DNA from: an uncultured Alphaproteobacteria bacterium
GTDB taxonomy: Bacteria > Pseudomonadota > Alphaproteobacteria > Caulobacterales > Parvularculaceae
Length of the DNA stretch: 64,000 nucleotides
Direction of reading: 5' to 3'
NCBI GenBank assembly: GCA_902826095.1
Contig: CADEDN010000004.1
Span: 1-64,000, forward strand
The notes beneath the pieces were generated by a model. That model was not told the origin of the DNA, made no database searches, and saw only the letters and a program-made list of their open reading frames with translations. Position numbers and translations under genes: made by a program. Shown here piece by piece: positions 9,075 to 43,214 of this stretch. How positions within the stretch are numbered: position 1 is the stretch's first letter; the number at the start of each line of letters is the position of its first letter.

Positions 9075-9149
9075 GCCTCAGTAGCTCAGCGGTAGAGCAG
9101 CCGGCGTAAAGCCGGCAGGCGGTCGGTTCGACTCCGATCTGGGACACCA
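9075..9149 (+). tRNA. atypical tRNA-like gene (class I cloverleaf, anticodon loop CGUAAAG: anticodon UAA but G33; C2:A71 mismatch; encoded CCA) - possible pseudo-tRNA
   Basis: GCCUCAG/UA/GCUC-AGCGGUA-GAGC/A/GCCGG-CGUAAAG-CCGGC/AGGCG/GUCGG-UUCGACU-CCGAU/CUGGGAC/A/CCA hand-folded. Confidence 0.45.
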
Positions 9150-9221
9150 CTGGATAGCTCAGTAGGGTAGAGCAGGAGACTGTTAATCTCTCGGTCGGGG
9201 GTTCGACTCCCCCTCCAAATT
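9148..9221 (+). tRNA. tRNA-Asn(GUU) with defective acceptor 5' strand (overlaps CCA of upstream tRNA-like gene)
   Basis: canonical D arm UAGCUCAGUAGGGUAGAGC, anticodon loop CUGUUAA, T arm GGGGG-UUCGACU-CCCCC; but 5' strand CACUGGA pairs only 4/7 with 3' strand UCCAAAU. Confidence 0.5.
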
Positions 9222-18442: not shown

Positions 18443-20683
18443 TTGATGGGGGCGCAGGAGAAAGGAGCGGGCGCGATGGCCGCAAAGGCGGACGCCTTGT
18501 CGCCGCGCCGGCTGATGCTCCTGACGGGCCTGCTTGTCCTTGCGATCGCCGTTCTTTTCTTCGGCAAGATCCAGGAAGAAAACGACGGACGCCGCGTCGA
18601 AACCGCGCTCCGGGTCGATCGCGCGGCGGGCGAATGCGGCGCGGCGGCGAATGTCGCGCTGATGACCGGCGACCCGGTCAGGAAGGCGCTGGCTTCTTGC
18701 GCGCCGGACGGCCTTGCGGCGGTCTATCATCTGTCGGCCGCGGGCGATGTTCTGTCGAGCGCTGGATCGGTGAAGAGCGCGCGCTTCGAGGCGCCCGACG
18801 CGCAAGGGCTTGCGCTTGTCGAGCGCGGCGCCGTCGTCATCCCGCTGAAGACCGGCAAATCCTTTGTCGCCTGGCGACCGCTCGACAATGGCGAGGCCGC
18901 GCTCGTCGCGGCGCCGGTCAATGATATCTACGCGCGCTCGCCGACCTGGGTGTTCTATCTGCTGGTCTTGTCGGCGGTCTCGGTCGCGATCGCGTCGCTG
19001 ATGGCGGCGTTCATTCGCCAGAGCCGGGCCGCCGCGCTCGCCGCCGGCGCCGTCGACGCCTTGCAGGCGATGAACGTCGCGCTCGCCTCGGGGCGCTCTG
19101 GAACCTGGTCCTTCGACCCGAAGGAGCGCAGCGTCACGATCTCGAAAACATTCCTTGAGGCGATCGGGCTTGGACAGCGCGATCGCAGCTTCACCATGCG
19201 CGAGATCACCGCGCTCGTTCACGCCGAAGATTTGCGCGGCGCGCTCGCCGTCATCACCGGCGACACCAGCGGCGTCGCCGAGGCGGTCGTTCGCCTTCGC
19301 CAGCCGGCCGGCGGCTGGACGCGCACTTTCTTTCGCACGTCGTCGCTGGCGACGCGGTTCAATCGCTCGGGCTCGGCGGTCGACCTCTCGGGGTCGAAAT
19401 CCGTCGCGCCGGGCGCCGCGATCGCCGAGGCGCGCCTCAAGGACGCGATCGAGAGCATCCCCGAAGCCTTCGTGCTTTGGGACGGACACGGACGACTAGC
19501 GGCGTTCAATCGGCGTTTCGCCGCGATCTTCCGCATTGATCCCAAAGCCATGCAGGCGGGGCTCTCCGCCGCCGAGGTCGTCGCGCTCGCGCCGGCGGGC
19601 GGCGAGGTGATCGCCAATTATTTCGCGCCGGACAGCGCCGTCGAGGAGCAGTCGGTCGAGGTCGAGCTGCCGAAGGACCGCTGGATTCTGATTTCAAGAC
19701 GGCGGACCGGCGAAGGCGGCCTTGTCTGCATCGCCTCGAACGCCACCGAAATGAAACGCCGCACCAGAGCCCAGAAAAAGAAGGAGCGCGAACTCGAAGC
19801 GACGGTGAACGATCTGCAGGCCTCGCGGCGCGACCTTTCGGAGACGATGCGGAATTACGAGCTTGAAAAGCGCCGCGCCGAGGACGCGAGCCGCTCGAAA
19901 AGCGAATTCCTCGCCAATATGAGCCACGAACTCAGGACGCCGTTGAACGCCATCAACGGCTTTTCGGAGATCATGCAGTCGGAACTCTACGGTCCGCTCG
20001 GCGACGAAAAATACCGCGAATATGTCGGCGACATCTTGTCGAGCGGCCAGCATCTCCTTGAACTCATCGACGACATTCTCGACATGTCGCGGATCGAGGC
20101 CGGCAAGCTGCAGCTCGAGCCCAAGCGCGTCGAGCTGGAGCGCATCCTTGAAGAATGCGCGCGGCTCGTCGCCAAGCGCGCGAGCGACGCCGGCGTCGCC
20201 TTGACCGCACATGTCGCGCATGCGCCGGCGATCTTCGCGGATGCGCGGGCGGTCAAGCAAGTGACGCTCAATCTTCTCTCGAACGCCGTCAAATTCACGC
20301 CGGCGGGCGGCGAAGTCACCTTGACGGCGGAGGCCGATCTTGACGGCGTCACGATCATCGTCGCCGATAACGGCTCCGGGATCGCCAGCGAGAACATCGT
20401 CCGCCTCGGCGCGCCGTTCGAACTGATCGAGGATCATTTCTCAAAGACGCGCAAGGGCTCGGGCCTCGGCCTTGCGCTCTCGAAGTCGCTGATGGAGCTG
20501 CAGGGCGGCATCCTCGCGCTGGCGAGCCAGGAGGGGAAAGGCACGGTCGCCTGCGCGGCTTTCCCCCGCCGGCGCGACGCGCGCGTCCGCCTGCCGCAAT
20601 TCATCCGCGACGACGCGCATGTGCTGACCGCGCCGACATCGCCCGCGCCGACGCCGCCGAAACATATCGAGGCGGCGGAGTAA
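18443..20683 (+). CDS. sensor histidine kinase (periplasmic sensing region, PAS, HisKA, HATPase_c)
   Basis: SKSEFLANMSHELRTPLNAINGFSEIM H-box; NAVKFTPAGGEVTL...DNGSGI...GSGLGLALSK ATPase boxes. Confidence 0.8.
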   Translation: MMGAQEKGAGAMAAKADALSPRRLMLLTGLLVLAIAVLFFGKIQEENDGRRVETALRVDRAAGECGAAANVALMTGDPVRKALASCAPDGLAAVYHLSAAGDVLSSAGSVKSARFEAPDAQGLALVERGAVVIPLKTGKSFVAWRPLDNGEAALVAAPVNDIYARSPTWVFYLLVLSAVSVAIASLMAAFIRQSRAAALAAGAVDALQAMNVALASGRSGTWSFDPKERSVTISKTFLEAIGLGQRDRSFTMREITALVHAEDLRGALAVITGDTSGVAEAVVRLRQPAGGWTRTFFRTSSLATRFNRSGSAVDLSGSKSVAPGAAIAEARLKDAIESIPEAFVLWDGHGRLAAFNRRFAAIFRIDPKAMQAGLSAAEVVALAPAGGEVIANYFAPDSAVEEQSVEVELPKDRWILISRRRTGEGGLVCIASNATEMKRRTRAQKKKERELEATVNDLQASRRDLSETMRNYELEKRRAEDASRSKSEFLANMSHELRTPLNAINGFSEIMQSELYGPLGDEKYREYVGDILSSGQHLLELIDDILDMSRIEAGKLQLEPKRVELERILEECARLVAKRASDAGVALTAHVAHAPAIFADARAVKQVTLNLLSNAVKFTPAGGEVTLTAEADLDGVTIIVADNGSGIASENIVRLGAPFELIEDHFSKTRKGSGLGLALSKSLMELQGGILALASQEGKGTVACAAFPRRRDARVRLPQFIRDDAHVLTAPTSPAPTPPKHIEAAE

Positions 20684-20685
20684 GA

Positions 20686-20852
20686 CCAAGTTGCGTTGGG
20701 GAAGGCTAAAAAAACCGTGTCATCCCGGGCGCGCCGCGGCATGACAATGCCGCGGCGCAGACCCGGGATCCCGCGCAATTTCGGGCCCTCGGCTGCACGG
20801 GGTCCCGGGTCTGCGCAGCAACACTACGTGTTGCAGCGCGCCCGGGATGACA
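20686..20852. mobile_element. truncated copy of ~258-bp MITE (left TIR ACCAAGTTGCG + palindromic core, right end missing)
   Basis: aligns to full copies at 31301-31557 and 38060-38327; begins 3 bp after HK stop codon. Confidence 0.65.
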
Positions 20853-20878
20853 ATCAATCAGATCGCAAAACAATCCGC

Positions 20879-31282: not shown

Positions 31283-31300
31283 TGAAGGGATTAGGGATTA

Positions 31301-31557
31301 TACCAAGTTGCACTGAGTCCAACTCATTCGGCGAGGATCCCTTCTGCTTTTGAAAGTGTCATCCCGGGCGCGCTGCAACACGTAGTGTTGCTGCGCAGAC
31401 CCGGGACGGCGTGCAGCCAAGGGCCCGAAATTGCGCGGGATCCCGGGTCTGCGCCGCGGCATTGTCATGCCGCAGCGCGCCCGGGATGACACGGTATTCT
31501 CCTTTGAAGAGGTCCGGGAAACAGGAACGTCATGAGTCTTCTTCAACGCAACTTGGG
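31301..31557. mobile_element. full-length ~258-bp MITE (TIR TACCAAGTTGC / GCAACTTGGKA, long internal palindrome, TTA target duplication) in the RR-HK intergenic region
   Basis: terminal inverted repeats and ~95% identity to copy at 38060-38327; flanked by TTA on both sides. Confidence 0.75.
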
Positions 31558-31620
31558 ATTAGGCCTTGGGCGTCGGGGTCGCGCGCCTCCCCCTAACACC
31601 TAAAACCTCAAACCCAAAAC

Positions 31621-35941: not shown

Positions 35942-36964
35942 TCACGCGCCGGCGAAATGCTTGCGCGGGGCGGCGTCCGCGCCGCTCCAGCGTTTGACGA
36001 ACTCTTCAAGCTCGGCGTCGCCGCCCTCGGGGAGGACGATCTTCAGCTTCACATATTGATCGCCCGCCGGCGCGCCCTCGCGCGCGACGCCGCGCCCCTT
36101 AAGGCGCAGCACCGCGCCCGAGCTTGAATTCTTCGGCACCGAAATCGAGACCTCGCCGGCGATCGTCGGCGCGGTGATCTTGCCGCCCAGAACCGCCTCT
36201 TTCAGCGTGATCGGCGCCTCGATATGGATGTCGTCGCCGTCACGCTCGAACAAGGGATGGGGCTTGACCGCGATCTCGACATAGACGTCGCCCGCCGGGC
36301 CGCCGGAGGTTCCAGCCTCGCCCTGGCCCTTGAGGCGCAGGGTCTGGCCGTTCTCAAGCCCTGACGGAATGGCGATGTCGAGCGATCGCCCGTCCGGCAT
36401 GGTCACGCGTTTCTTGGCGCCTTTGACGGCGTCGAGAAAATCGACCTCAAGGCGGTATTTGACGTCGCGCCCGCGAAACGCCGCGCCCTGGCCTGCGCCC
36501 TGGCCTGCGCCGCCCGGCGCAAACCCGCCGCCTTGACCCGGTGCGCGCCCGCGCCCGAAGAGATCGGCGAAAATGTCGCCAAGATCGTCAAAATCGCCCT
36601 TGTTGGCGAAGCCGCCGGAATAATTGGCGCCGCCCTGACCTGATGTCCCTTGACCTTGCGCGTTGGGGCCGCCGGTCCATTGCCGGTACTGATATTGCGG
36701 ACGCTCGCGGCCATGTTCGTCGATTTCGCCGCGGTCATATTTCTTGCGGCGGTCGGCGTCGCCGATGATGTCGAAGGCGGCGGAGATTTCCTTGAATTTC
36801 TCCTCGGCCTTCTTGTCGTCCTTGTTGCGGTCGGGGTGGTATTTTTTGGCGAGCGTCCGGAACGCCGTGCGGATTTCCGCGTCGGTCGCCGACGGGGTGA
36901 CGCCAAGCACGCTATAAGGGTTCCTCGCCAAGTCCTTACAAGGCTCCTTTTGAGCGCAAAACAT
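35942..36964 (-). CDS. J-domain co-chaperone (CbpA/DnaJ-like, J domain + Gly-rich linker + DnaJ C-terminal domains, no zinc finger)
   Basis: NPYSVLGVTPSATDAEIRTAFRTLAKKYHPDRN J domain with HPD; G-rich region; C-terminal beta domains. Confidence 0.7.
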   Translation of the reverse strand: MFCAQKEPCKDLARNPYSVLGVTPSATDAEIRTAFRTLAKKYHPDRNKDDKKAEEKFKEISAAFDIIGDADRRKKYDRGEIDEHGRERPQYQYRQWTGGPNAQGQGTSGQGGANYSGGFANKGDFDDLGDIFADLFGRGRAPGQGGGFAPGGAGQGAGQGAAFRGRDVKYRLEVDFLDAVKGAKKRVTMPDGRSLDIAIPSGLENGQTLRLKGQGEAGTSGGPAGDVYVEIAVKPHPLFERDGDDIHIEAPITLKEAVLGGKITAPTIAGEVSISVPKNSSSGAVLRLKGRGVAREGAPAGDQYVKLKIVLPEGGDAELEEFVKRWSGADAAPRKHFAGA

Positions 36965-37121
36965 TCATCGCGGGACCACGGCCCCGCGTTCTAGATAGGC
37001 AATCCTGCCACAAAATGAAGGGAACGCGGTTAATTTCGCCCCGCGATCTTGTGATCGGCCGGCGGATTGCCGATCGAGCGCGCAATAAGGAGGATCGCGC
37101 CGCAATCCGCGGAGCGCATCG

Positions 37122-37601
37122 ATGAAATACCGCCTCGCCGCCCTTTTCGCCTTGTTCGCCCTGCCCGCTTTGGCGAGCGATCCGGTCGATCTTTCCTTCC
37201 TCGCCGGGGATTTCGCGATCCATGATCCGGCGGGCGCCGAAATCGGCGAAGCCGCCGCCATCGAGGAAGCGGCGGACGCCGTCATCCGGGAAACGCGCAA
37301 AGTCGGCGACGGCGCCCCGCAAATCCTGTGGTTCGTCAACGACGAAGAAAAAGGCGGCTGGCGCCAGCTCTTCGTCGCCGCGACCGGCCGCGTGCGCGCC
37401 TTCGATCCGGTCTCCGCGGCGGGCGAATGGCCGCTCGTTCTTGGAAGCGAGACGACGCTCAAGGACGGAACGACAGCGCGGTTCCGCATGACCCTCTCGA
37501 AAACCGGCGACGACCGCGCGCGGCGCCTTCTTGAAATGTCGAAGGACGACGGCGCGACATGGACGACCGTCTTCGACTATGATTACCGGCGGCGGGAATA
37601 A
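37122..37601 (+). CDS. secreted hypothetical protein
   Basis: signal peptide MKYRLAALFALFALPALA; 159 aa. Confidence 0.5.
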   Translation: MKYRLAALFALFALPALASDPVDLSFLAGDFAIHDPAGAEIGEAAAIEEAADAVIRETRKVGDGAPQILWFVNDEEKGGWRQLFVAATGRVRAFDPVSAAGEWPLVLGSETTLKDGTTARFRMTLSKTGDDRARRLLEMSKDDGATWTTVFDYDYRRRE

Positions 37602-37651
37602 GGGACGCAGGCGGATCATCGGAGGGAGAAGGCGGCGCAGACCGGAGACGA

Positions 37652-38497
37652 TCATATGTCGCCGACAATGAGCGCGCGCAGCTCGGACAAGCAGGCCGGC
37701 GTTTGCGGAAGGCCGGCGCGCTGCAGCTCGGCGAGGTAACTGTCAAATGAGATCGGCGGATTTCGATAGTGCTCGAAGTCCCATTTGACGGCGGCGAGGA
37801 ACGCAAGCTCGCCAATGCTCGCGACGTCGAGGATGAATTCGTCGGGATGGCGGGTATGAAGCCCGAATTTCGCGAGGATCTCCTTAGGGAAATCCTTCTC
37901 ATTAAATGTGACAATGACGCTTGCGTTCGCGCAAATCGCCGCGGCGAGTATCGGCCGGTCGCCCGCATCCGGCAAGGTCAGCGAATTCGCCAGCTCTTCA
38001 TATTCCTCGACCAGGCAATCAGGGACCGCGCGGTCCATCGCCGCGCGAGTTGCAACTAATACCAAGTTGCACGGGGTCCAACGCATTCGGCGAGGATCCC
38101 TTCTGCTTTTGAAAGTGTCATCCCGGGCGCGCTGCAACACGTAGTGTTGCGGCGCAGACCCGGGACGGCGTGCAGCCAAGGGCCCGAAACTGCGCGGGAT
38201 CCCGGGTCTGCGCCGCGGCATTGTCATGCCGCAGCGCGCCCGGGATGACACGGTTTTCTCCTTTGAAGAGGTCCCGGAAACAGGAACGTCATGAGTCTTC
38301 TTCAACGCAACTTGGTATAACGATGGCGGATTGAGATCGCTTCGCTTTGAGAGAACCGCCCTGATCCATTCTTCATGCACGTATTCCGACCAGCGCGCGC
38401 GGAACAAGCCCGTTTTCGCCAAAGAGACTACGAGACTTCTAAGGCGCGCGCCGAAGAAAACGTTTGAACCGAAGAACGCGGTGAAAGTGGAGATCAC
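37652..38497 (-). pseudogene. PIN-domain toxin gene carrying an in-frame 261-bp MITE insertion (87 extra aa between N- and C-terminal halves)
   Basis: N-terminal FFGSNVFFGARLRSLVVSLAKTGLFRARWSEYVHEEWIRAV and C-terminal LPDAGDRPILAAAICANASVIVTFNEKDFP halves match a PIN family paired with HTH antitoxins; the middle is MITE-encoded. Confidence 0.6.
38060..38327. mobile_element. full-length MITE copy (TIR TACCAAGTTGC..GCAACTTGGTA, TAA target-site duplication) inside PIN toxin gene
   Basis: TIRs, internal palindrome GTCATCCCGGGCGCGCTGC...GCAGCGCGCCCGGGATGAC, TAA flanks. Confidence 0.75.
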
Positions 38498-38498
38498 G

Positions 38499-38954
38499 CT
38501 AATCGAGCCTCAGCCGCTCCGCTTCGGCCGCAAGCTCCTCAAGCGCCGCCTCGCGCTCTTTCATTGATCGGCGCTCATAATCGAGAAGGTCGCCGAACCG
38601 GATCCGGCGATGCCGCCCAACGACCCGGTGCCTGATGAGACCGCGGTCGATGAGGCCGGTGAGATAGGGCCGCGAGACATTCAGATAATCGGCGGCTTGC
38701 TGCGTTGTCAGCTCCGCCTCATTCGGGATGATCGAGATTGGAATCCGTTCCGACATGCATTCGAGAATTTTGACGATCAGCGAAACGGCGCGCGCCGGCA
38801 ACGGCACGACGACCTTTGCGCCGTCCTGCACGACGAGGCGAATGTCTTGCTTCGCGTCCGCGCTCGCTTTCAATTTCTGAACAGCCGCTTTGGCGATTGT
38901 CGCCTCAATCTCATCGGCGACAAACGGATCGGTCTGGTCCACCAGCGCAAACAT
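38499..38954 (-). CDS. helix-turn-helix (excisionase/MerR-like) antitoxin partner of PIN toxin
   Basis: LTTQQAADYLNVSRPYLTGLIDRGLIRHRVVGRHRRIRFGDL HTH; immediately upstream of the PIN gene with 1-bp spacing. Confidence 0.65.
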   Translation of the reverse strand: MFALVDQTDPFVADEIEATIAKAAVQKLKASADAKQDIRLVVQDGAKVVVPLPARAVSLIVKILECMSERIPISIIPNEAELTTQQAADYLNVSRPYLTGLIDRGLIRHRVVGRHRRIRFGDLLDYERRSMKEREAALEELAAEAERLRLD

Positions 38955-39124
38955 GGTTCAAGCGGCTCCCTTGGGCCTGGCGGGCGGCCTCCAAGACCGG
39001 CCCTGAAGTCCTATACATTGGTGGTCAAACGAAATAAACGCAATAAATGCAATAATCGTAAATCGCCCTTGAGCTGACGTTGAATGCTCGCAACCAGTGT
39101 TTGTGTGGATGATCCTCCTAAAGT

Positions 39125-39190
39125 TTAGAATGAGCCCTCCCCTCTTTCCCCCACCCCGACCAGGTCCGAGATCTCCGCGACGCTGAGGGT
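39125..39190 (-). pseudogene. 3'-terminal fragment homologous to C-terminus of GTA tail protein (…EISDLVGVGERGEGSF)
   Basis: ~45-bp nucleotide and 17-aa similarity to the end of the 1005-aa gene (…QISDLVGVGEWGETGA). Confidence 0.35.
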
Positions 39191-39309
39191 GAGCGCCGAC
39201 GTGCCGCCCCGCGGGCGCAACAATGCGACTTCGGCGATTTGATAATGTTGATTTGCTTTTATTTGACGATAAAGTGACCCAATTGCTATCGGGGTTAGGG
39301 GCGACAACA

Positions 39310-40065
39310 ATGAAATATGCGTTATTGCTGGGCGCGATTTTCTTATCGTGCTCATGCGCAACAGTCGTGCGCGGAACCAAAGACACGGCCGAATTTGAAA
39401 GCCGGCCTAGCGGCGCCAATGTCACGGTCGAGTCGGTCAGCGAAGACAAGCTCGGACCGTATGACTGCGTCACGCCCTGCAGTCTTGAACTGAAGCGCAA
39501 ACGGACTTGGGCGGTCGACTTTACGCTCGAAGGATACAAGCCGGCTTCGGGGCGTCTTAGACCGAAAGTCACTGGCGGCGGCGTTGCGGCCGGCGCCGGC
39601 AATGTGCTGCTTGGAGGCCTCATCGGTGTCGGCGTTGATGCAGGAACCGGCGCCAATCTCGATCTGCGGCCAAATCCGATGATCGCCGAACTAGAGCCGC
39701 TCGACTCGCCGAATGAATCGCGCGTCCTCGACACGGAAATCGACGACGACGCGGCGCCGACCGCGGCCGGTGAGCCAGCGCCTTCCGCTGCGAGCGATAC
39801 TCCGTCGGCGGAGGACTTGCCCGCGAACGATGACGCCGCGCCGGCGAGCGTTGATCGGGAAAGCGCAACAGACGCCGCACCGCAGGAGACGACCGCTGCG
39901 ACCAGCGGCGAGGCGGCGACGGAAACGACCGATGAAATCGCTGGGGAGCCGGTCGCCCAGCCGGCGCGCCTGTACAAGCCCGGTGAGGTCGCGCCGAACG
40001 ATGAAGCGGCAAGCGATCTTAACCGGCGACAGCTTGAAAAGATCGAGAACCTTCCACAGCAATAA
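39310..40065 (+). CDS. lipoprotein with acidic low-complexity C-terminal half
   Basis: MKYALLLGAIFLSCSCAT lipobox; gene start sits in a locally low-GC patch; the long antisense ORF 38958-40169 is rejected. Confidence 0.6.
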   Translation: MKYALLLGAIFLSCSCATVVRGTKDTAEFESRPSGANVTVESVSEDKLGPYDCVTPCSLELKRKRTWAVDFTLEGYKPASGRLRPKVTGGGVAAGAGNVLLGGLIGVGVDAGTGANLDLRPNPMIAELEPLDSPNESRVLDTEIDDDAAPTAAGEPAPSAASDTPSAEDLPANDDAAPASVDRESATDAAPQETTAATSGEAATETTDEIAGEPVAQPARLYKPGEVAPNDEAASDLNRRQLEKIENLPQQ

Positions 40066-40075
40066 TCAAAACCCC

Positions 40076-40112
40076 GCGCCGCCTGATCCGGACCGTCAGG
40101 CGGCGCGTCACA
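40076..40112. terminator. convergent-gene hairpin (CGCGCCGCCTGA-n9-TCAGGCGGCGCG)
   Basis: 12-bp perfect stem between the ends of lipoprotein (+) and 1005-aa gene (-). Confidence 0.35.
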
Positions 40113-40147
40113 TCGGCGGGCGTTGTTTGCGGCCGAGGCGGCTGTGC

Positions 40148-42985
40148 TCACGCCCCCGTCTCCCCCCATTCGCCGACGCCGACCAAATCCGAGATCTGCG
40201 CGACTTTGATGACGAGCGGCGGCTTTCCGCCGGGAAATCCGGCCGGCGGAAAGTCGGCGGCGATCATCGCCGCCGCATAGGCGAAGGCGGGGGTTGAGAC
40301 TTCCGCCGTGCGGACGCGGGCGGCGCCGTTCCAGATCTCGACGCGGTAGCGCTCGAAGGCCTCGCCCAAGGGGACGTCCTCGCCTTCCCAGCTGTCGCCG
40401 CCGGCCCTCGTTCTCCTTATCCAGGAGACGGCGATGTCGCCGTTCGGCTGGTCCTTCGCGCGCAGATGCGCCGGGGAGAGAGGCTTTAGCCCCCGCGCCG
40501 CGCCGGCGAAGGTCTTTATACGGAAGGTCTCTTCGGTCGGAAGATCGCCCGCCGGGCCGGCCGCCCAGTCGAAGGAGAGGCCGCGCAGGTCGAAGGGAAG
40601 CTCGGCCTGGATGATCGCGGGCGAGAGGAGGATGAAGCGCGCGCCGGCGCCGGCGCCCGCCGCCGCCTGGCGCTCGGTTCCCGCCTGCCCGCGCAAAAGG
40701 CCCGTCAGCGTCCAGACGCCGTCCGGCCCGAGCGTCGCGTCGCGAAATTGCAGAACCTCGAACCCTTGCGGCGTTTCGACGACGGCGCTGTTGGCGCCGG
40801 CGAAAATCTCTTCGGCCCCGCGCGACGCGAGCGCGCCGAAGGCGAGCCGCACGCGGAGCGTCCGCTCGTCGAAGCGGCCGGCGACGCCGGGCGCGAGCGC
40901 CGCGTCAAGCCTTCCCATCACCGCGCGCGTCGCGGCGGTTGCGGCGAGCGCCGACCCCCGATAGAGCGCGACGGCGCCCGGCCAGGGATCGGCATAGACG
41001 GCGAGATAGGGCGCGGCCGGATCATCGCCCTCGGAGAGGAGCGGCAGATTCATCAGCTCGAACGCCGGCTTTCCAAATTGCGGCGGGCTCGCCGGCGTCT
41101 TCCACCCCGATGTCGCGACCGGCGCTTCATAGACGGCCGGCGAGACGCGCACCGCCTCGACCTTGCGCGCCGCGCCGTCGGTCAGCGAGATGATGCGGAA
41201 ATCGCGGGCGACGGGCCCGAATTCGACGCGGACCGCGTCGCCGGGTTCGAGAAAGGCGAGCGAGGGCGGCAGCGTGAATGTCGCCGTTTCGCGCATCAAG
41301 GCGGCGTCGGCGAGGATCGAGCGCGCACGCGCCGCCGCGCTCGCCTCGTCCATCACCGCGGGGAGCTCCAGCGCCGTCTCGCGGATCTCGTCCGTGTGCG
41401 GATGGCGCGCCTCGGCGACAGCGGGGAGATAGTCGCCGCCCTCGTCGATATAGAGGAGGCGGACGGCGCTCGGCAGATCCGCCTTCTGCCCGGTCGTCAA
41501 GGTGAAGGCGGCGGCGCCTTTGCCGCCGGCGCCGTCGTCGACAAGCGCCGCCTTGCCGATCGTCAGCGCGTTCGGGCCGCCGCGCGGCTGGAACCGCAGG
41601 CCGGCTTGCGTCTCGACCATGTCGAACTGGAAAACATCCGCCAGGGGATCGATCATCTGGCGGGGCGAGAGCGGCCGGTCGACGACAAACCCCGCGAGCG
41701 AGCCATTGAGCGCGCCGGCGTCGGCCGCGACATCGCCTTCGGCGGCGAGCGCTTCGACGAGGGCGCCGAGCGGCGCGCGCGAGAGGCGCCCGTTCAGCCA
41801 GTGGCCCTTTTCCCAATTGCCGGCGTCGCCCCAGATGTCGCCGCGCGCCGGAAAGAACGGATAGGGCCGCGCGTCGACGGCATAGACATAGAGCCGGTCG
41901 GTGTCGATCATCGCGACGCCCGCCGCGCTTTCATTATGCGCGCGCCAATAATCATGCACGGCCTCAAGCGCGCGGCGCTGGATCTGATCGTCGCGCGCGC
42001 CGCTCGAAAAAGGCGGCAGCGCCGATTCCGACGATTTCGGATCGACAAAGACATTCGGCGCGTTCGCCCCCTTGTCGACAGCGGGACAGCCGATTTCGGT
42101 GAAGCGGATCGGCTTTGATTTCGGGACCCATGCCGTCGGCGCCGCCGCCCTTGCGAAATTCGGGCGGTCGTGATGCGCGTTCTTCCACCAATTGCGGATG
42201 TCCTTGGCGCGCCAGACGAAGGGCTCATTGTGCGCCGCGTCGCTGATCGGCGTTCTTGTCTGCGCGATGCGGTCGGCCTCGCTCGCATAATGCCAGTCGA
42301 AATGCTCGCCGCCCTCGATATTGGCGGCGATATAGGCAGGGTCGTAAGGGCTCTTCCAGCCGGCGTTCAAATCCGCATGATCAAAGCCGTCGCGCCAGTC
42401 GGCGAGCGGCGGGTAATAATCAACGCCGACAAAGTCGATATTGGCGTCCGCCCACGCGGCGTCGAATTGATGGCCGCGAAGCCCGTCCGGATCCTCCGAG
42501 GAGAACACATAGGCGACCGAGCCGTTCGCCGGAAAGACGAGGCGCCGGCGCGAGACTTCATAGCGCGGGCGCTCATTGTCGGGGCCAAGATGCGCGAGGC
42601 CGGATTGGCCGTCGATCATGACTTCCCTCCCGTCGGCATAGGTCTCGCTGACGAGCGCGATGCGCGCCGGCGTCGTCCGATCACGGACGAATTCCCGGAT
42701 CCATTCGGCGCCCGCTCTCGTCTTCCCGGCGCCGCGCCCGCCGAGCAGAAGCCATAAGGTCCAGTCATCGGTGAGCGGCCATTTCTGGTGGTCATGCGCG
42801 TTGCGGCGATACCAGTCATGCTCGGTCCCCCGAGCCTTCGCCGTGCTGTCCGCCATCAGCCTCGCGACCCCCAGCAGCGCCGCGACCTGTGAGTCGGTAT
42901 ATATGCTCATCAAGCTCTCGCTTGAGGACAGCCGCGTCAGCGGCGATGCGGGCGTTGTGGTCGGCGTCAGCGCCGTCTGTTCCAT
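40148..42985 (-). CDS. chimeric phage/GTA protein: N-terminal ~240 aa terminase-large-subunit ATPase fragment fused in frame to GTA TIM-barrel/host-specificity (g15-like) tail protein
   Basis: DWTLWLLLGGRGAGKTRAGAEWI...LRGHQFDAAWAD (TerL Walker A region) then NIDFVGVDYYPPLADWRDG... GTA TIM-barrel-like and tail regions; start uncertain (42856-43165). Confidence 0.55.
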   Translation of the reverse strand: MEQTALTPTTTPASPLTRLSSSESLMSIYTDSQVAALLGVARLMADSTAKARGTEHDWYRRNAHDHQKWPLTDDWTLWLLLGGRGAGKTRAGAEWIREFVRDRTTPARIALVSETYADGREVMIDGQSGLAHLGPDNERPRYEVSRRRLVFPANGSVAYVFSSEDPDGLRGHQFDAAWADANIDFVGVDYYPPLADWRDGFDHADLNAGWKSPYDPAYIAANIEGGEHFDWHYASEADRIAQTRTPISDAAHNEPFVWRAKDIRNWWKNAHHDRPNFARAAAPTAWVPKSKPIRFTEIGCPAVDKGANAPNVFVDPKSSESALPPFSSGARDDQIQRRALEAVHDYWRAHNESAAGVAMIDTDRLYVYAVDARPYPFFPARGDIWGDAGNWEKGHWLNGRLSRAPLGALVEALAAEGDVAADAGALNGSLAGFVVDRPLSPRQMIDPLADVFQFDMVETQAGLRFQPRGGPNALTIGKAALVDDGAGGKGAAAFTLTTGQKADLPSAVRLLYIDEGGDYLPAVAEARHPHTDEIRETALELPAVMDEASAAARARSILADAALMRETATFTLPPSLAFLEPGDAVRVEFGPVARDFRIISLTDGAARKVEAVRVSPAVYEAPVATSGWKTPASPPQFGKPAFELMNLPLLSEGDDPAAPYLAVYADPWPGAVALYRGSALAATAATRAVMGRLDAALAPGVAGRFDERTLRVRLAFGALASRGAEEIFAGANSAVVETPQGFEVLQFRDATLGPDGVWTLTGLLRGQAGTERQAAAGAGAGARFILLSPAIIQAELPFDLRGLSFDWAAGPAGDLPTEETFRIKTFAGAARGLKPLSPAHLRAKDQPNGDIAVSWIRRTRAGGDSWEGEDVPLGEAFERYRVEIWNGAARVRTAEVSTPAFAYAAAMIAADFPPAGFPGGKPPLVIKVAQISDLVGVGEWGETGA

Positions 42986-43214
42986 TCTTCTTCTTTTCCT
43001 CTCGAATGCGGCCGAGAAGCGCGTTCGCATCCTGCGCGACGCGCATGAAGGCGACCGCGGTGCGCGCGATGCGGTCGAATTTGCGATTGTCCTCGCGCTC
43101 GTCATAGGCGACGTCGGCGAGGCGTTGCCTGGTTTCGGCGATCGCAAAGCCGAAGATGCATTCAAGGCTCTCTTCGCATTCGGCGATCGTCAGCGCTGTC
43201 TTCTTCTCCGTCAT
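42816..43214 (-). CDS. hypothetical helical protein (possible GTA g1-like small protein) overlapping the terminase-fragment N-terminus in another frame
   Basis: MTEKKTALTIAECEE... 130-aa charged helical ORF just upstream of the TerL-like region. Confidence 0.3.
   Translation of the reverse strand: MTEKKTALTIAECEESLECIFGFAIAETRQRLADVAYDEREDNRKFDRIARTAVAFMRVAQDANALLGRIREEKKKNGTDGADADHNARIAADAAVLKRELDEHIYRLTGRGAAGGREADGGQHGEGSGDRA

Follow-up and report, generated by a model that had tools for sequence, protein, structure and literature searches.

Within a 64,000-nt stretch of DNA from an uncultured Parvularculaceae bacterium of the class Alphaproteobacteria (GenBank assembly GCA_902826095.1, contig CADEDN010000004.1, positions 1 to 64,000; hereafter the window), a two-gene locus encoding a helix-turn-helix (HTH) protein and a PIN-domain protein was analyzed, of which the PIN gene carries a transposable element of the miniature inverted-repeat type (MITE) in frame. 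The HTH gene product was assigned to the excisionase family by profile searches (PF12728 HTH_17, E=1.7e-11; TIGR01764 excise, E=6e-12), and its length and position are the same as in orthologous loci. The open reading frame (ORF) of the PIN gene starts with GTG 1 nt past the TAG stop of the HTH_17 ORF. This arrangement, in which a small DNA-binding gene abuts a PIN gene upstream and on the same strand, is the layout found in toxin-antitoxin (TA) systems of type II, and based on sequence the pair would represent a chromosomal type II TA-like operon for which growth inhibition and neutralisation are presumed only. Both genes had been recognized in an initial annotation of the window, and the 281-aa PIN ORF as well as its upstream excisionase-type partner were reproduced by the coordinates and the HTH_17 profile match.

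The PIN gene product shows the PIN (RNase H-like) fold. Members of its family possess an uninterrupted PIN domain of approximately 190–200 aa, which in the window protein is broken by an 87-aa insert between residues 60 and 61. The N-terminal part comprises 59 residues, as previously described, whereas the C-terminal part, formerly estimated at approximately 130 residues, has 134. The latter represents the remaining PIN fold together with the VapC50_C region (PF26343 was recorded on homologues), and the PIN_3 profile match of the 281-aa ORF is confined to it. Scoring 103–115 bits and therefore below the cut-off of 170 of the NCBIfam RSP_2648-family equivalog, the protein is placed in a sister group of the RSP_2648-family PIN proteins. 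A PDB sequence search returned no relative, and in Foldseek the insert-bearing model obtained weak PIN matches only (E=0.24), after which the intact orthologue was modelled in its place. In PADLOC, the PIN protein had no match and the antitoxin-type protein a weak HTH match only, and filing the pair as a defence system was rejected for this reason. The pair resembles VapBC50 of Mycobacterium tuberculosis (Rv3750c/Rv3749c), where an HTH_17/excisionase-type gene is likewise located upstream of a PIN_3 plus VapC50_C protein of approximately 195 aa, and differs from it by the 87-aa insert and by the loss of a catalytic aspartate (D10G) in the PIN protein. Furthermore, the HTH_17-PIN pair is also kept in the loci L001, L007, L009, L017, and L018.

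The inserted element, designated copy C in Table 1, is bounded by terminal inverted repeats (TIRs) with the sequences TACCAAGTTGC and GCAACTTGGTA. In the inverted-repeat listing the TIR arms appear as 12 nt long, since one base of the target-site duplication (TSD) was counted in on each side. The start of the element in the initial annotation (38060) proved to be exact, whereas its end (38327) had been placed approximately 7 nt too far and lies at 38317. Together with one 3-bp TSD copy, the 258-bp element accounts for 261 bp or 87 codons, of which the element itself is read as 86. Of the six reading frames of copy C only one is free of stops, and the PIN gene uses exactly that frame. Since the sole stop-free frame is in phase and 258+3 is divisible by three, the PIN ORF remains open; the TAA/TTA duplication (a direct repeat), the absence of stops and the multiple of three had all been noted before. 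Copy C does not contain a transposase-sized ORF in any of the six frames, five of which carry stops, and the 87-aa low-complexity basic peptide deduced from the open frame had no family, intein or domain match in profile searches. The core of the element also holds two small hairpins. RNA folding of the gene strand of the element resulted in a minimum free energy of −153.6 kcal/mol (z = −10.9), the stable structure lying 177 nt into the PIN cistron. Potential targets of the type TWA (TAA or TTA) are sparse, occurring at 5.5 per kb in the window, six of them in the PIN gene, in a genome of 65% G+C. The flank of the insertion site at 38045–38056 (GAGTTGCAAC) is similar to the terminal repeat of the element (AAGTTGCAC), which may reflect chance or a target preference. 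Small size, TIRs, a TSD of fixed length with an empty site, and several dispersed copies, as expected for a MITE, were all observed. As shown by its TIRs, its TSD and the existence of intergenic copies, copy C is mobile DNA and not native protein-coding sequence.

Table 1. Features of the HTH_17-PIN locus and copies of the inserted element; positions refer to the window.
Feature	Position	Strand	Description
Antitoxin-type gene	38499..38954	-	151 aa; excisionase-family HTH at residues 82-129; intact
PIN ORF	37652..38497	-	281 aa; GTG start at 38497
PIN gene, N-terminal part	38321..38497	-	59 codons; aligns with residues 1-59 of all homologues
PIN gene, C-terminal part	37652..38056	-	134 codons + stop; aligns with homologue residues 61-194
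Codon 10	38468..38470	-	GGT (Gly) in place of the family's first catalytic PIN Asp (D10G)
MITE copy C	38060..38317	.	258 bp; 11-bp perfect TIRs at 38060-38070 and 38307-38317
MITE core	38115..38251	.	nested double hairpin; 21-nt perfect outer arms, 27-nt inner arms; four CCCGGG sites
TSD copy 1	38318..38320		TAA on +, read by the gene as TTA (Leu60); one Leu codon only in the orthologue
TSD copy 2	38057..38059		TAA on +
MITE copy B	31301..31558	.	258 bp; 97% identical to copy C (8 differences); TIR match 10/11
MITE copy A	20684..20853	.	opposite orientation; core and shortened right arm; left arm missing

Homologous proteins and loci provided evidence for the insertion event. In the alignment to intact homologues that had been recommended, the window protein carries an exact, gapless excess of 87 residues between residues 60 and 61, and this segment is absent from all 120 best homologues listed (172–235 aa, nearly all 190–207 aa). 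At the DNA level, the window reads TCG-TTA-(258 bp)-TTA-GTT at the position where the orthologue features TCG-CTC-GCG with its single Leu codon, and the PIN gene of the window exceeds its orthologue in length by exactly 261 nt. The empty site was taken from a related metagenomic lineage and not from the same strain (a reconstructed empty site would read …CCATCGTTAGTTGCAAC…); the related loci have the gene order gene transfer agent (GTA) tail gene, HTH_17, PIN, small ORF, and DnaJ-like gene in common. Moreover, both junctions were recovered in Logan assemblies of independent sequencing runs. Contigs from ERR3089230, ERR3089231, and ERR5523452 encode the antitoxin-type protein, and all of them cross the same junction and end approximately 34 nt into the element. 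The other junction was reached from the DnaJ side by contigs from ERR3089230 and ERR3089240, which stop 35–54 nt into the element. Short-read assemblers are expected to break contigs within repeats. The ERR5523452 contig (L006) represents a distinct strain (99.6% identical), and the insertion is therefore common to at least two strains. Since identical junctions were obtained in independent assemblies of four runs, an assembly artefact does not account for the insertion.

In addition to the insert, the PIN gene features a catalytic-site lesion, D10G, which the initial annotation had missed. Position 10 is Asp in 60 of 60 aligned homologues (GAC in the orthologue) and is invariant in a 58-sequence alignment from which the window protein was excluded, and the GGT codon was found in all three independent assemblies, including the one of strain L006. 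The other acidic residues of the active site, namely E43, D93 (D180 in 281-aa numbering), and D115 (D202), are present, leaving the conserved D, E, D, D set of PIN nucleases incomplete. As deduced from the sequence, nuclease activity is most likely lost irrespective of the effect of the insert, and the insert alone is weaker evidence for inactivation than D10G. Concerning the insert, residues 57–70 form one helix in the model of the orthologue, and the element enters after residue 60. Residues 82–140 of the 281-aa AlphaFold2 model had predicted local distance difference test (pLDDT) values below 50 and no secondary structure. The previously suggested comparison of structure predictions with and without the insert thus yielded a segment that is predicted to be disordered and to split helix 57–70. 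Furthermore, the inserted peptide contains 20 Arg+Lys and 9 Pro residues, and its isoelectric point (pI) is 11.7, compared to a pI of 5.2 for the host protein.

Based on these results, the PIN gene is interpreted as a young pseudogene within a TA-like operon, marked by the MITE insertion and by the lost catalytic Asp (probability roughly 0.8). The MITE entered at the rare TTA Leu codon 60, the triplet was duplicated, and 87 codons were added. Mobilisation of the element presumably occurred in trans, through a DDE transposase that recognises the TACCAAGTTGC ends and introduces a 3-bp staggered cut at TWA. The PIN product, if made, would be unable to bind the catalytic metal and would be neither nucleolytic nor toxic. 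Its disordered basic insert, the split helix 57–70 and an RNA structure of −154 kcal/mol should further reduce folding and translation; downstream of the stable hairpin in the bicistronic mRNA, translation is probably lowered as well. The HTH protein would persist as an orphan antitoxin or as an (auto)repressor. The claim that the insertion inactivates the toxin and leaves an orphan antitoxin is supported in this form, with D10G added as a second lesion.

In order to place the lesions in time, substitution rates were considered. Relative to the nearest MITE-free lineage (L001/L007; dS of approximately 0.6–0.7), the ratio of nonsynonymous to synonymous substitution rates (dN/dS) was 0.087 for the antitoxin-type gene and 0.176 for the PIN gene, the corresponding values between two intact lineages being 0.093 and 0.096. 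Between the window and strain L006, three substitutions were counted in the 177-nt PIN N-terminus, all of them nonsynonymous (R20G at an invariant position, V40A, and P58A), versus none in the 456-nt antitoxin-type gene. The chance of all three falling into the PIN part is approximately 0.02, calculated as (177/633)^3 under the assumption of an even spread. These events, only three in number and located near a contig end, suggest that constraint may have been relaxed for the PIN gene while being maintained for the antitoxin-type gene. Since the PIN branch is not accelerated and deviations are few, both lesions are recent compared to the split from the nearest MITE-free lineage, and the 97% identity between MITE copies is consistent with this view. 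Judged by the otherwise intact ORF, the branch without acceleration and the dN/dS value, a long-standing pseudogene status is excluded.

Several observations weigh against inactivation and decay of the PIN gene. In the relative-rate test, the window PIN branch had no excess of changes (11 vs. 14; with a second outgroup 6 vs. 8), and its dN/dS compared to L001 is 0.18. Frameshifts and stops are absent from the PIN ORF, which is intact but for the insert and D10G, and the one further deviation at columns conserved to at least 95% is common to intact relatives. Both PIN halves were placed with pLDDT values above 90 in the AlphaFold2 model, although such predictions are alignment-driven, and the PIN protein may have retained a non-catalytic role. 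Inspection for MITE-less alleles, which had been advised, revealed the empty site in related lineages; in the same lineage no MITE-free allele was found, and no parent insertion sequence (IS) with these TIR ends is encoded within the 64-kb window. Finally, VapC50, the named member of the family, was not toxic in Escherichia coli (PMC5175181), so that the term 'toxin' is an assumption for this subfamily. Given the null result of the relative-rate test, the case for decay is carried only by D10G, the insert and the three between-strain substitutions.

Among other explanations, a tolerated or exapted insertion was considered, in which the PIN::MITE fusion is made and folds, the 87 residues forming a surface loop of a protein whose role is not nucleolytic; such a protein could bind RNA or assist the HTH protein as its partner or co-repressor, for instance, as has been proposed for Rickettsia palindromic elements (RPEs). 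The insert is in frame and stop-free, it lies only four residues into the helix following a loop, a position near a loop that makes structural tolerance possible, and the remaining family-conserved residues are kept without acceleration of the branch. However, approximately 6% of shuffled frames with the composition of the element are stop-free, the intergenic copy B likewise has this frame open, and chance read-through would be expected for one in six insertions into genes, so that a selective explanation is not required. Moreover, the catalytic Asp is lost, the insert is predicted to be disordered and is strongly basic in an acidic protein, the three exchanges that separate the strains in the PIN N-terminus are all nonsynonymous and include one at the invariant R20, and, in contrast to RPEs, an intragenic position is seen for only one of the four known copies. 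Exaptation is therefore considered unlikely. Rather less probable still is a variant in which a nuclease-dead PIN::MITE protein is expressed and retained in an RPE-like manner to serve the HTH protein as a non-toxic partner or co-repressor, or in which the HTH-PIN pair is tied to the GTA and decays with it.

A toxin that is still active, whose insert would be no more than a harmless loop and whose catalysis would rely on three acidic residues or a substitute residue, would agree with the open ORF and the conserved, adjacent antitoxin-type gene, but is very improbable given the invariance of D10 in 58–60 family homologues, the function of the acidic pocket as metal site of PIN nucleases, the helix split by the insertion and the R20G exchange between strains. 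Likewise, it is hardly credible that the insert represents a mis-assembled repeat of a metagenome-assembled genome (MAG), a lineage-specific domain or an intein-like sequence. The source is indeed a metagenome-assembled contig, and no short-read contig spans the whole element; however, both junctions are identical in the independent Logan assemblies of the four runs, and native sequence is contradicted by the TIRs, the TSD and the intergenic copies, by homologues without the segment and by the lack of an intein or domain match. Intein, native domain and assembly artefact were rejected on these grounds, and the young pseudogene remains the preferred interpretation of the PIN gene.

Further copies of the element were identified in the window. 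Copy B is located between a response-regulator gene and a histidine-kinase gene, the intergenic gap of this pair being stretched to 338 nt, and it is flanked by TTA/TTA (31298–31300 and 31559–31561), unlike the TAA of copy C. The TIR of the incomplete copy A adjoins the TAA stop (20681–20683) of the histidine-kinase ORF 18443..20683, the stop codon having served as target. With respect to local transcription, all three window copies have the same orientation, right end first, which is not significant (p=0.25). The element does not represent a chance feature, since the inner-arm motif of its core occurs six times in the window (0.00 expected). In total, three copies in 64 kb and one on another NCBI contig are known, of which one in four is intragenic. 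The latter copy was detected via P0133, the sole true match (94% identity) to the 87-aa peptide in an exhaustive HMMER search of 1.84 billion representatives. P0133, which is encoded on a different NCBI contig (130 kb), has no family match and does not belong to the PIN proteins; its ORF was called across a further copy of the element. Occurrence of the segment in homologues from unrelated genomes, which would have marked it as native protein, was thus not observed.

Searches in additional resources yielded distant relatives at best. The weaker HMMER matches P0135 and P0136 represent ORFs across arrays of distantly related hairpin repeats, and a word-indexed search of 5.8 billion clustered proteins returned no match to the 87-aa peptide. 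Patterns for the left end and the core arm of the element had no match in 185,579 species-representative genomes, a collection without the source genome, and no copy was found in approximately 50 kb of related-lineage loci. Scanning JGI metagenomes for the core-arm pattern revealed one distant double-hairpin relative (L013) and no true copy. The L013 hairpin (positions 385–510 of JGI contig Ga0209347_1030674) shares the arm motifs GTCATCCCGGGCGCGC…GCGCAGACCCGGGA and lies between the end of a GTA terminase gene and the start of a portal gene, both genes having been read by eye. Taken together, L013, P0135, and P0136 may indicate that palindromic repeats rich in CCCGGG form a wider family. In a blastn search of plasmids, a single 47-nt match to the core arm was obtained on a Terrarubrum plasmid, and Rfam yielded nothing at gathering score, only sub-threshold hairpin look-alikes. 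Regarding the parent element, TSDs of 3 bp of the type TWA are typical of the IS1031, ISL2, and IS427 groups of the IS5 family (ISfinder) and of eukaryotic PIF/Harbinger elements, which makes the IS5 family a candidate parent family. The literature provided no citable statement on 3-bp TSDs. With its TACCAAGTTGC ends, TWA target, length of 258 bp and extremely stable double-hairpin core, the element appears to represent an undescribed and lineage-restricted MITE family.

The genomic neighborhood of the pair is characterized by a GTA remnant. Beside the TA-like pair, a 1005-aa ORF (40148–43165, minus strand) represents a fusion of the N-terminal half of Terminase_6N (aa 140–240) into GTA_TIM, which begins at profile position 72 and is followed by Phage-tail_3 and Rcc01698_C. 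In relatives, a GTA tail protein of 1287–1288 aa is preceded by other GTA genes, and only its residues 513–1287 match the window. Upstream of the fusion (to approximately 44400), subunits of an Mrp antiporter are encoded. Based on the fusion and the upstream Mrp genes, the GTA cluster appears to be internally deleted in this lineage; the same terminase::tail fusion is also annotated on Logan contig L004. The HTH_17-PIN pair is located between the GTA tail gene and the DnaJ/CbpA-like gene (window 35942–43165) in L001, L002, L009, and L016/L017 as well. PIN proteins of the lineages with this conserved locus, the Parvularculaceae MAG GCA_046296195.1 included, are 56–81% identical to that of the window, and it is unusual for a TA module to be kept vertically at a single locus for so long. 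The synteny with this MAG, together with a window protein that clusters at 90% identity or more with a protein named from a Parvularculaceae bacterium, agrees with a probable Parvularculaceae-like source. In Rhizobium mesosinicum, the HTH_17-PIN pair is found elsewhere, near an integrase. Moreover, two adjacent tRNA genes (Rfam RF00005, 48 and 54 bits) are present at 9075–9217 on the plus strand of the window.

In-frame intragenic MITEs have been documented in bacteria, namely RPEs in Rickettsia, ERIC, QMITE1 in Coxiella, and MITEs in Anabaena (PMC10969869). The window element resembles RPEs in being a short, palindromic, mobile repeat that is in frame and stop-free within an alphaproteobacterial gene and extends the ORF. 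In contrast, RPEs recur in frame in numerous genes, some of them essential, whose function is presumably kept, and the predicted fit of their insertions with protein conformation and function was called 'intriguing' in the same review (PMC10969869), whereas the window element is intragenic in only one of four cases, its host gene is catalytically mutated, and its open frame can be explained by chance. Moreover, it has no sequence similarity to described elements (185,579 genomes, Rfam), and the RPE hallmark of recurrent in-frame insertion with a conserved peptide was not found. With short TIRs, a TAA or TTA TSD and a size of approximately 260 bp, it is similar to MITEs with 3-bp TWA duplications. 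Concerning the gene pair, degrading TA pairs were named as one source of orphan antitoxins in a survey of Klebsiella (PMC7192599), and orphans of this origin are common. The window locus shares with degraded TA loci an intact antitoxin-type gene and a cognate toxin that is inactivated, here by prediction; it differs in that the toxin ORF is full-length and open, so that both genes would be counted as intact in a survey relying on ORFs.

MITEs inserted in frame into genes and TA pairs in decay are both of known kinds, and the current understanding of MITEs and TA systems is unchanged by this locus, which is unsurprising to the specialist and useful as an annotation caveat. ORF callers and TA pipelines read through the insert and score an intact pair with an unusually long PIN toxin. 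Furthermore, the local density of the element is high (three copies per 64 kb), and it breaks short-read assemblies at every copy. For the TA-like operon itself, the locus would capture, at a datable stage, how TA decay begins, with the toxin being lost first and the antitoxin kept.
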